From the UHGV virus genome UHGV-2135452: DNA of 10,619 nt, one strand, 5' to 3'. The position numbers and the translations under genes were made by a program. This document shows, piece after piece, positions 7,569-9,140 of the stretch (within the stretch, counting starts at the first letter, position 1; each line of letters begins with the position of its first letter). The notes under the pieces are model-generated. The model was not told the origin of the DNA and did not search any database. It saw nothing but the letters and a program-made list of their open reading frames with translations. The DNA is from a virus.

Positions 7569-7704
7569 TGCGCGCTAACGTGGTAGTTTAAATTTTTTTC
7601 GCATGACAGCACGCTTCAGTCGAGGAGTAATGCTTTAAATTAATCCTGTTAGCTATGATTATTGCGGTTCATCATATCGTGCTAGAAGCATGAATAATGC
7701 TGTG

Positions 7705-7726
7705 AAAAAGCCGCTATTAAAGCGGC
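7705..7726 (-). terminator. Rho-independent terminator downstream of the cargo operon
   Basis: On the minus strand: GCCGCT-TTAAT-AGCGGC hairpin followed by TTTTT, about 30 nt after the stop of the 137-aa ORF. Confidence 0.55.
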
Positions 7727-7755
7727 CATAAAAAGTAGTAAGGCTATATGAATAA

Positions 7756-8169
7756 TTATGGAGCCTTTATTCCTAACTCAAACTCCTCTCCATCCCTAAC
7801 CTTTTCGAGGAGTTCTCGAAGATAGTTTGAATATCTATGGGACTGAATCTCATCACCGTTCATTATTGCATAGTGGTATTTGTTATCGAATGTCTTGATG
7901 TCTACGTTCGTGATGTTTTTAACTACTTCTAATAGTTTGTTCGCATCATGCCAGCCTTTGAAACCAAGTGATTGCCCTAGCGTGGTTAAAGTAAAAGGAT
8001 AACTGGCATTAAATGCCATACCATCTGACGATGTGGCGATACCATATAATTTCGCTAATTCACCTTCTGACTCGCTAATGCTTGATAAAACTCGGTAATC
8101 AACTTGGACAGGATTGCGAGGTATATCAGTTCTGACGAGATCGTAAGTGCGAGCTAAAAGTGCCCTCAA
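7756..8169 (-). CDS. Hypothetical protein, 137 aa, partner of the SIR2-like gene; no recognisable domain; start uncertain
   Basis: AT-rich ORF directly downstream of the SIR2-like gene on the same strand, followed by a terminator. The track start is TTG with no Shine-Dalgarno; first in-frame ATG is at 8019. The reading frame stays open upstream to 8256 and overlaps the SIR2 ORF end. Confidence 0.5.
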   Translation of the reverse strand: MRALLARTYDLVRTDIPRNPVQVDYRVLSSISESEGELAKLYGIATSSDGMAFNASYPFTLTTLGQSLGFKGWHDANKLLEVVKNITNVDIKTFDNKYHYAIMNGDEIQSHRYSNYLRELLEKVRDGEEFELGIKAP

Positions 8170-8243
8170 TAATTTGGGATTTATGTTATCAAGTGCTCTG
8201 TTCGCGCCAAACGCTGAAAATACCCAAGAGAAGTCATTTGCTA

Positions 8244-9113
8244 CTATACTTTTATTCTAATGCTTTTGTTTGCAGATACTTGAATCAGCCGTTCACGGCG
8301 TGGGTATTCACTTTCATTTTGTTTGCTCGTCCATTCTAAAATGTATATATTTGGAATGACATCTCCATTTTCTGAAAGTAGTTCATCAATATCAGATAGT
8401 ATGTTTTTTATGTTCGAGTCTTCTGCGCTGTAACCTATAAATAGAAGAGGGTGTTCAGCAAAGAAAGTAAGCAGTTTTGCGCTTAAATATTTCTTCTTCT
8501 TTATGAAGTCATCGTAGTCATCGCGGTTTATTATTATGCTTTCAGGAGTGGAGCAGCAACCATGTATTTTAAGTATTTCACCAATGCTACCGTGATTAGC
8601 GTAAAGGATTTTTTGGCCTATAATGGGGGTAAGCTCAGGATATATCGATTCAAGTAATTTGTCGTAATTTGTTGTGATGATTGAATGAGGGTGAATCTTT
8701 CTCAGAAGTTCAATTTCACCGTTGTTTACGATTTCTTTTTCTTGTAACAATGAGTTGAAAATACTAGATACTTTGTATTTAAAATAAATACTTGGCTCAT
8801 TGCCTGCATCAAATAACTCTGCTGGAAATTCTTTCTCTCCATCACCCCATGCCCACTCGTTATAAGAATCAGAAAATACACTGCCGATATCAATCAACTC
8901 GGGGTATTTCTGTTTATAATAGGCAAATCTTTTATCGATGTTAGGACATTCATTAGCAAGTTGCTGAAGAAGTTCTTCCCAGTTTGGGCCAGAAAGATAT
9001 CTCTTGGTTAATCCCGATCCAACAAAAAGTATGGGTTGGCATCCCATTCCTTCAAGACATGTCTTTATATCATCACTAACGTCTTCGATGTATTGATGGT
9101 AGTTATTTGGCAT
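8244..9113 (-). CDS. SIR2-like (sirtuin-fold, SIR2_2/defence-type) predicted NAD+-hydrolysing protein, 289 aa
   Basis: Motifs in the expected order and spacing: Rossmann ILFVGSGLTKRY (about residues 28-39), catalytic-type ITTNYD (about 136-141), LKIHGC (about 181-186), LLFIGYSAEDSNI (about 224-236). ATG at 9113 preceded by AAGGAG with 6-nt spacing. Strongly AT-rich relative to the backbone. Confidence 0.8.
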   Translation of the reverse strand: MPNNYHQYIEDVSDDIKTCLEGMGCQPILFVGSGLTKRYLSGPNWEELLQQLANECPNIDKRFAYYKQKYPELIDIGSVFSDSYNEWAWGDGEKEFPAELFDAGNEPSIYFKYKVSSIFNSLLQEKEIVNNGEIELLRKIHPHSIITTNYDKLLESIYPELTPIIGQKILYANHGSIGEILKIHGCCSTPESIIINRDDYDDFIKKKKYLSAKLLTFFAEHPLLFIGYSAEDSNIKNILSDIDELLSENGDVIPNIYILEWTSKQNESEYPRRERLIQVSANKSIRIKV

Positions 9114-9140
9114 TTAAGACTCCTTTGCTGTGCAATCTTA

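Follow-up and report, generated by a model that had tools for sequence, protein, structure and literature searches.

A frameshifted SIR2-family gene in the variable slot of a P4-like satellite

Introduction

The DNA described here, a stretch of 10,619 nucleotides from the virus genome UHGV-2135452 (the window), is a P4-like satellite integrated at ssrA. The AT-rich cargo between its cos site and its integrase gene is, with high probability, a single-gene cargo of the P4-satellite hotspot in the form of a pseudogene allele, located at 7756–9113 on the minus strand and derived from an ancestral gene for a SIR2 protein of 452 amino acids (aa). The original prediction had read this cargo as a two-gene module with a 289-aa SIR2-like effector and a 137-aa partner. 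Both open reading frames (ORFs) are indeed present and co-oriented on the minus strand, but they are the two parts of one SIR2 gene split by a 1-nt deletion and do not form a two-gene module. What the window holds is thus the pseudogene form of a cargo already known; it is no new defence module of two genes.

The satellite backbone and its variable slot

The conserved flank of the hotspot on the cos side is psu, the gene of the polarity suppression protein (6813–7385, plus strand; Pfam Psu, E=1.3e-88). On its left the variable slot is bordered by the P2/P4 cohesive-end sequence cos at 7550–7568 (plus strand), an exact match to GGCGAGGCGGGGAAAGCAC, which also occurs in the insert of P4 NC_001609 as printed in Table S2A of Rousset et al. 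2022. The right border is int, encoding a P4-type tyrosine integrase (9141–10352, minus strand; Pfam Phage_integrase, Phage_int_M and Arm-DNA-bind_3). The integration site itself, the 3′ end of ssrA (tmRNA), is found at 10537–10619 on the minus strand (Rfam RF00023, 77 bits, model positions 288–374), and the order int-ssrA-smpB is annotated in L001, an Escherichia coli chromosome with the intact allele of the SIR2 gene.

Between cos and int (7569–9140) the G+C content is 37.5 %, compared to 61 % in alpha and 51 % in the whole window. Furthermore, the satellite backbone is present in about 298 complete E. coli genomes, only seven of which carry the SIR2 cargo. The SIR2 gene is therefore AT-rich, variable cargo of the psu/cos–int hotspot, and in its account of the satellite, of the base composition and of the variability of the slot the original prediction holds.

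One SIR2 gene split by a single-nucleotide deletion

Alignment to intact alleles identifies 7756–9113 (minus strand) as a frameshifted copy of a single gene for a 452-aa SIR2-family protein (WP_001133507). DNA identity to the intact 1359-nt coding sequence of L001 and of five other E. coli chromosomes is 99.8–99.9 %, with one gap of 1 nt. In the pairwise alignment to L001 this gap falls at 8250–8253 (minus strand), where the coding strand of the window has a run of four adenines (A4) and intact alleles have five (A5), the letters being AGAATAAAAGTATAG and AGAATAAAAAGTATAG, respectively. The loss of one A from the A5 run leads to a stop after codon 289, the premature TAG at 8246–8244, and leaves the tail out of frame. 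The frame from the ATG at 9113 to this stop (8244–9113, minus strand) comprises the SIR2 core with the motifs TTNYD (N149) and HG (H184); residues 1–288 of its 289-residue product agree with the intact protein. After the stop the remaining 163 codons (164 triplets including the stop) are out of frame. When the frame is repaired, the translation differs from WP_001133507 solely by F161L.

The putative partner gene at 7756–8169 (minus strand), which starts at TTG, encodes in fact residues 316–452 of the same SIR2 protein, made up of a conserved linker and a C-terminal module of helices and a hairpin specific to the family. It is that portion of the out-of-frame tail which lies 3′ of an in-frame TTG, and its frame is open upstream as far as the deletion. 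Profile searches gave a SIR2_2 match for the 289-aa product, in line with the prediction, and none for the 137-aa ORF alone in scans of Pfam, PADLOC and NCBIfam, because this ORF is a C-terminal fragment of the SIR2 protein.

Concerning expression signals, a Shine-Dalgarno sequence AAGGAG was read directly from the sequence at 9120–9125 (minus strand), 6 nt upstream of the ATG at 9113; a promoter scan of the region upstream of this ATG gave no convincing sigma-70 promoter. The gene ends, as predicted, in its own intrinsic terminator at 7705–7727 (minus strand), a hairpin with a 7-bp stem (GGCCGCT/AGCGGCC), a 5-nt loop and a T5 tail. It was missed by a simple pattern scan for terminators and confirmed by folding (RNAfold, −11.9 kcal/mol).

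In principle the locus could be a genuine split SIR2 module, in which a 289-aa effector acts together with a 137-aa partner translated on its own. Both ORFs are open and co-oriented, they have one terminator between them, and the allele with its 87 contigs is not rare. However, the two ORFs are adjoining portions of a gene which, among the seven complete E. coli genomes with the cargo block, encodes a single 452-aa "SIR2 family protein" (WP_001133507) in six and is disrupted by an IS5-like insertion in the seventh; it is also unsplit in all full-length homologues listed from distant taxa. In addition, no Shine-Dalgarno sequence was found ahead of the TTG of the downstream ORF, which gene callers left uncalled in two of the assemblies with the same allele (L008 and L009). 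The premature stop lies inside the predicted strand 283–292 of the N-terminal domain and so cuts the SIR2 domain within its last beta-strand. Finally, a single further nucleotide distinguishes the window from the intact allele, so that the split must be recent. A functional two-protein module is on these grounds highly improbable; the ORF pair represents a single gene interrupted by a frameshift, and therefore the window copy is very probably non-functional.

Distribution of the intact and the frameshifted allele

The A4 run is common to three separate assemblies (L008, L009 and L010), which are 100 % identical over 1572 nt and share the linked variant G8633, while L001 and L002 have A5. Contigs with the exact truncated 289-aa protein number 87; it occurs in 170 index blocks, and its sources are NCBI, ENA, JGI and Logan. 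The intact protein with F161 is eight-fold commoner (715 contigs), and the exact repaired protein with L161 is present on five contigs.

The loss of one base in a homopolymer run is a classic type of error, and the A4 allele occurs in none of the 5,426 complete genomes of E. coli in RefSeq. Even so, it is improbable that the deletion arose in sequencing or assembly and that the organism itself has an unbroken gene: the run is only 4–5 bases long, and neither the recurrence of A4 together with G8633 nor the spread of the truncated protein over four sources would be expected from such an error. That three independent assemblies have the identical deletion, and that 87 contigs encode the truncated product, marks A4 as a real pseudogene allele.

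Another way to keep the gene alive would be −1 ribosomal slippage at A_AAA_G, which would yield full-length protein and make the allele a low-dose source of a potentially toxic NADase instead of a dead gene. Judged from the codons, a tRNA-Lys slipping by −1 on AUA-AAA-G could re-pair with AAA and would restore exactly the wild-type RIK-SIVA; the spread of the A4 allele to many isolates would also fit. However, the site is not an X_XXY_YYZ heptamer and no stimulatory structure was identified, intact alleles are eight-fold commoner, and the independent IS insertion in the same gene points to plain decay. Slippage, an idea reached by reasoning only, is as a regular mode of expression very doubtful. 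Some residual activity of the 289-aa product is conceivable, as is a little full-length protein from rare slippage. We nevertheless infer that the frameshifted allele has lost its putative NADase and defence function, since its sensing or regulatory part would be uncoupled and its SIR2 domain is clipped.

The intact protein and its homologues

The intact 452-aa protein seems to be composed of three parts. The first, approximately residues 1–303, is an N-terminal SIR2 domain of the defence type with N149 and H184 as predicted catalytic residues. Pfam SIR2_2 (PF13289) matches residues 144–266 with 94 bits (cut-off 24.5; E=1.2e-26). No variation occurs at N149 or H184 among 37 homologues, and a PDB sequence search pairs H184 with the histidine of DSR2 that is catalytic and was mutated in the H171A structures. 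In the predicted structure the pLDDT of this domain is mostly 80–95, and the top Foldseek matches of the fold are ThsA, DSR2 and KomC (E=1e-10 to 1e-8, probability 1.00). Pfam, PADLOC and Foldseek together support a defence-type SIR2 protein, in agreement with the sirtuin-fold motifs noticed earlier in the 289-aa product. Some RefSeq records name the protein 'NAD-dependent protein deacylase'.

The second part is a highly conserved but poorly modelled linker (about 306–363). It is followed by a small, family-specific module of helices and a beta-hairpin (about 365–440), which weakly resembles a winged helix of the MerR/Xis type. Invariant residues are found throughout the C-terminal third in the alignment of homologues. 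The PDB sequence search returned no solved relative of the C-terminal part, all matches being to the SIR2 core. The possibility that this module is a shuffled sensor which also occurs on other effectors was rejected: in a search of 1.84 billion representatives all real matches were SIR2_2 proteins, whole or fragmentary, and a single marginal match to a HYR repeat was judged spurious.

More than 1700 homologues of the SIR2 protein were found. Nearly all of those listed are 450–460 aa long and cover 98–100 % of the query, and their hosts include Enterobacterales, Pseudomonas, Vibrio, Cohnella and Methanoperedens. Homologues are located on mobile elements, at prophage edges and in defence islands. 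Among the distant homologues examined no shared partner gene was found nearby, and no HerA gene lies beside the homologues examined; a 256-aa neighbour in P. aeruginosa and a 131-aa neighbour in Vibrio had no matches in PADLOC.

Possible function and implications

The intact gene is contained in a published survey of P4 hotspots as system #39, with the label 'SIR2_2', the comment 'Likely a NADase' and 40 occurrences (Rousset et al. 2022, Table S1B). It was cloned with its native promoter from E. coli M605 as pFR88 (Rousset et al. 2022). The insert of pFR88 begins at the position corresponding to 9234 (minus strand) of the window, and the protein encoded by it is the intact form. A literature search on PDC-S25, WP_001133507, SIR2 proteins with a winged helix and single-protein SIR2 defence gave neither a characterisation of this family nor an NAD+ hydrolase assay for the protein.

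On the model of ThsA, DSR2 and KomC, the intact protein may be an NAD+ hydrolase that is inactive until infection, with its C-terminal part serving as a regulatory, sensing or oligomerisation element. Once active, it would deplete NAD+, and the infection would be aborted. Such an NADase-based abortive infection, also expected in the original prediction, would be a property of the intact protein.

Alternatively, the intact gene may have nothing to do with phages and encode a protein deacylase or an ADP-ribosyltransferase acting for the satellite or the host, its place in the hotspot being incidental. Seven systems protected MG1655 against eight coliphages, and system #39, listed under 'additional tested systems', is not one of these validated systems (Rousset et al. 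2022). The deacylase label of some RefSeq records and the repeated inactivation by frameshift and IS insertion are likewise compatible with a role outside defence. However, eight phages in one host are a narrow test, and the closest folds and profiles (ThsA, DSR2, KomC and PDC-S25) all belong to defence NADases or to candidate defence systems. Furthermore, the gene occupies a slot in which roughly a third of the tested cargos protect (Rousset et al. 2022), and a defence island and prophage edges are among the places where homologues are situated. A function unrelated to defence thus appears unlikely, though less so than an error in the run of adenines. About equally unlikely is a more specific proposal, namely that the intact family is a stand-alone SIR2 effector whose C-terminus senses phage nucleic acid or a DNA-bound state, combined with a trickle of full-length protein from the A4 allele by −1 slippage. 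If true, direct sensing by the C-terminus would differ from ThsA, which senses a signal, and from DSR2, which senses the tail tube.

As a discovery the locus carries little weight, because the 2022 survey already contains the gene, its hotspot position and the NADase guess, and also a clone of the intact form that was challenged with phages. It has practical consequences nevertheless. A small ORF without a domain just 3′ of a truncated enzyme calls for a frameshift test before a two-gene system is proposed, and a clone of 7700–9140 from the source strain would test a dead allele. The repeated decay of this cargo, here by frameshift and elsewhere by an IS element, fits a rapid turnover of defence cargo in satellites. 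With its more than 1700 members and a C-terminal domain confined to SIR2 proteins, the family could repay a broader phage screen, its defence function being that of a candidate.

Comparison with known systems

KomC of the Kongming system and the SIR2 protein of SIR2-HerA (Nezha / Gao_Her) have the defence-type SIR2 NADase core in common with the window protein. However, KomC needs KomA and KomB, and the SIR2 subunit needs HerA. Kongming was rejected as there are no KomA or KomB ORFs in the slot, and SIR2-HerA as no ORF for a HerA-type (DUF87) ATPase lies between cos and int.

DSR1 and DSR2 are known single-polypeptide SIR2 NADases with the same TTNYD and HG motifs. In contrast to the 452 aa of the window family, they are 1000–1200 aa long and bind the phage tail tube through an extended helical sensor. 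Both were rejected: the NCBIfam Dsr2 model gives 14 bits at a cut-off of 1400, and the PADLOC matches to Dsr1 and Dsr2 are confined to the SIR2 core.

Among solved folds, that of ThsA, the SIR2-SLOG NADase of Thoeris, comes closest to the SIR2 core (8bto, E=9e-11). The two proteins are also alike in overall size (about 450–480 aa) and in the arrangement of an N-terminal SIR2 domain and a small C-terminal regulatory domain. Unlike ThsA, the window protein has no SLOG domain, and the ThsA profile is matched only at 81–217, in the SIR2 part. Neither a TIR or SLOG match in Pfam nor a further ORF was found in the slot, and nothing suggests gcADPR sensing as in Thoeris. Membership in Thoeris was rejected for lack of a SLOG domain and of an adjacent thsB with a TIR domain. 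The original prediction had set aside Thoeris, SIR2-HerA and DSR1/DSR2 as well, rightly so.

Its view of an undescribed minimal SIR2 module is superseded by two closer relatives. The best PADLOC match is the candidate PDC-S25 (PDLC04968), likewise a single-gene SIR2 system (E=2e-84 for the repaired protein and E=4.9e-74 for the 289-aa ORF). The match is limited to positions 10–358 of the 517 in the profile. It leaves out approximately the last 75 residues of the family, and the C-terminus is therefore unlike that of the seed proteins of the profile. With system #39, in contrast, the window shares both gene and locus, and the proteins are identical after repair save for F161L. The reading frame of the window copy, however, is interrupted by the 1-nt deletion and gives only the first 289 residues, so that the SIR2 gene described here is a pseudogene allele of system #39 and not an intact member.

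Satellite backbone and cargo slot

The window corresponds to a P4-like satellite that has inserted at ssrA. The backbone comprises the genes for the alpha primase-helicase (647-2980, minus strand), a delta/ogr-like protein (6182-6739, plus strand), psu (6813-7385, plus strand) and a P4-type integrase (int; 9141-10352, minus strand), and the tmRNA 3' end lies at 10537-10619. The P2/P4 cohesive-end sequence GGCGAGGCGGGGAAAGCAC (cos) is present as an exact copy at 7550-7568. The block between cos and int has a G+C content of 37.5 %, compared with 61 % in alpha and 51 % in the whole window. 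It contains, on the minus strand, a 289-aa ORF (8244-9113) with an ATG start and AAGGAG upstream, and a 137-aa ORF (7756-8169) with a TTG start and without a Shine-Dalgarno sequence. A hairpin with a T5 terminator (7705-7727, -11.9 kcal/mol) follows downstream of both. The coordinates, the AT-rich composition, cos, int and the terminator of the original prediction were all re-found.

Further Rfam matches in the window, all on the minus strand, are the P4 immunity C4/CI antisense RNA (4431-4518), isrK (4617-4694) and the c4 a1b1 target (4655-4707); they overlap a long ORF (4179-4814), part of which is annotated by RefSeq as an Icd-like protein. Past the end of alpha, where the satellite meets the chromosome on the side of ypjA, positions 1-646 have a low G+C content (35-45 %). 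In one other assembly that carries the frameshift allele described below (GCA_048793145.1; locus L008, 73-972) a MethyltransfD12 methylase takes the place of smpB beyond int, which suggests that another element or an altered arrangement adjoins the satellite.

One gene split by a frameshift

The two ORFs had been proposed as a SIR2 gene and a separate partner without a recognisable domain. A first clue to their relation was the match of the 289-aa protein to the PADLOC single-gene candidate profile PDC-S25 (E=4.9e-74), which yet covered profile positions 10-286 of 517 only. When 7569-9140 was searched by Megablast in 5,426 complete E. coli genomes, seven matched. The match spans 1573 nt in each, compared with the window's 1572 nt, and six of the seven genomes annotate a single CDS for a 452-aa "SIR2 family protein" (WP_001133507). 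The window differs from the intact copy in two places only: a substitution at 8633 (F161L) and the loss of one A from a coding-strand run of five (AGAATAAAAAGTATAG to AGAATAAAAGTATAG; the remaining A4 is at 8250-8253), which leads to V-stop-stop following codon 288. Towards the 5' side, the 137-aa ORF keeps an open frame (including KSIVANDFSWVFSAFGANRALDNINPKLLRALL) as far as the deletion. Adding one A to the window sequence gives the 452-aa protein again and lengthens the PDC-S25 match to positions 10-358 (E=2e-84). Hence the 137-aa ORF corresponds to residues 316-452 of the same SIR2 polypeptide. The proposed two-gene module with its separate partner is therefore replaced by one 452-aa gene split by a 1-nt deletion.

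The frameshift belongs to a real allele and did not arise as a read error. Exactly this 289-aa product is recorded on 87 contigs (NCBI, ENA, JGI, Logan) and in 170 index blocks, and three independent assemblies (GCA_048793145.1, GCA_002514055.1, GCA_052228255.1) share the A4 run, with 100 % identity to the window across the full 1572 nt. The intact protein with F161 occurs on 715 contigs and that with L161 on five; since the latter is identical to the repaired window sequence, it is the likely immediate ancestor of the window allele. In E. coli MEI4BO-21 (NZ_CM149565.1; locus L002, 3188-5644) the SIR2 cargo gene is interrupted by the IS5-like ISKpn26, a second inactivation of the hotspot gene that is separate from the frameshift. 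The intact gene is thus ancestral and has been inactivated at least twice, the direction of change being clear.

The window copy is a pseudogene allele of system #39 in the P4-hotspot catalogue of Rousset et al. (2022). It is most likely without function, since the 163 C-terminal residues are uncoupled and the SIR2 domain itself is cut short: translation stops prematurely at 289, within a predicted strand (283-292, AlphaFold2), so that the end of this domain is likewise missing from the truncated product. By reasoning, if tRNA-Lys slipped by -1 on AUA-AAA-G, the wild-type sequence would be restored precisely, but a canonical heptamer is absent and no stimulatory structure was identified at the site, which makes such a rescue highly improbable. 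Loss of function is the preferred reading.

The intact protein

The SIR2 nature of the product was confirmed: by profile, motifs and fold the intact protein is classified as a SIR2_2 protein. It has more than 1700 homologues; nearly all of those listed have 450-460 aa and 98-100 % query cover, and their hosts include Enterobacterales, Pseudomonas, Vibrio, Xenorhabdus, Cohnella and Methanoperedens. N149 (TTNYD) and H184 (HG) are invariant in an alignment of 37 sequences, as are, among others, W297, L316, R317, A321, R322, Y324, R328, D330, I331, P332, G358, N369, P373, G384, W388, D410, Y413, Y428 and S429 in the C-terminal third.

The AlphaFold2 model (mean pLDDT 78) has three regions: a confident SIR2 domain (residues 1 to about 303), a highly conserved linker modelled with low confidence (residues 306-363; minus strand of the window, about 8025-8196) and a compact module (residues 365-440, pLDDT about 80-89) built from three helices, a beta-hairpin and a helix. 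The linker holds the densest invariant run of the C-terminal third (LLRALLARTYxLVRxDIPRNP); in each of the two AlphaFold runs its pLDDT is <50, and it may form an interface beyond the reach of a monomer model. Foldseek against the PDB found ThsA (8bto, E=9e-11), DSR2 and KomC, all via the SIR2 core. A PDB sequence search concurs, and H184 aligns to the catalytic histidine of DSR2.

A search of the C-terminal part against 1.84 billion representatives gave 144 clusters. In every full-length match the module lies at about 320-450; of the shorter matches, those checked are SIR2_2 fragments. The module is therefore limited to this SIR2 family, and a shuffled sensor was rejected.

Genomic context of homologues

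The P. aeruginosa homologue is found at the margin of a Pf-type inovirus prophage, the Vibrio homologue in a variable region with a reverse-transcriptase gene nearby and the Cohnella homologue in an island bounded by an integrase. That of Thioalkalivibrio nitratireducens (CP003989.2; locus L012, 1-15365) is found in a dense defence island with a SNF2 helicase, a 1673-aa Eco57I-type enzyme, Mrr (Mrr_cat), ParE, PIN, a nucleotidyltransferase and several toxin-antitoxin pairs. No neighbour gene is common to these four contexts, and PADLOC matched neither of the two tested genes that lie immediately downstream, which supports a single-gene, mobile, defence-associated cargo.

At the P. aeruginosa loci (L003/L004/L005) the homologue (7001-8353) is 73 % identical and the prophage genes include Zot and DUF2523. 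A co-oriented 256-aa ORF follows 34 nt downstream (8387-9157); it has no Pfam or PADLOC match and may be either a partner specific to this lineage or cargo unrelated to the homologue.

Proposed mechanism

The SIR2 domains of ThsA (Thoeris), DSR2 and KomC hydrolyse NAD+ once activated. By analogy with these, the intact protein, a single gene product with a SIR2 fold and a catalytic dyad (N149/H184) intact across the family, is probably a latent NADase causing abortive infection. Regulation, oligomerisation or sensing would probably fall to the conserved linker together with the winged-helix-like C-terminal module. What remains of value is the family as a whole, which is functionally uncharacterised, and the evidence of repeated decay of satellite defence cargo.

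Relation to known defence systems

Thoeris was rejected as a SLOG domain and a TIR gene are absent, DSR1/DSR2 by length (452 aa) and score (14 bits compared with a cut-off of 1400), and SIR2-HerA and Kongming by the absence of their partner genes; the original prediction had likewise set aside Thoeris, HerA and DSR1/DSR2. PDC-S25 is matched only partially by the repaired window protein (10-358 of 517), and a literature search for this profile or the WP_001133507 protein found no characterising paper.

The SIR2 gene is P4-hotspot cargo. Hence the original prediction stands as regards a SIR2 defence candidate (SIR2_2, psu/cos-int position), and fails as regards an undescribed module. The psu-int hotspot of P4-like satellites has been catalogued; WP_001133507 appears there as a "SIR2_2" cargo of one gene (Table S1A) and, under system #39, with a count of 40 occurrences and the remark "Likely a NADase" (Table S1B) (Rousset et al. 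2022, PMC9122126); gene, locus and NADase guess are thus already published. System #39 from E. coli M605 was cloned with its native promoter as pFR88, which is listed in Table S2B ("additional tested systems") and absent from Table S2A ("validated defense systems"); seven cloned P4 systems protected MG1655 against eight coliphages, system #39 not being among the named seven (PMC9122126). The printed pFR88 insert starts at window 9234 with minus-strand sequence, and the protein given for it is intact, as it contains …IRIKSIVANDF…. The same hotspot carries an unrelated second one-gene SIR2_2 cargo, system #9 (115 occurrences; Table S1B, PMC9122126). Its protein, which corresponds to Domainator's "Sir2-like" cluster 12, is different from and longer than that of system #39, which is the gene of this window.
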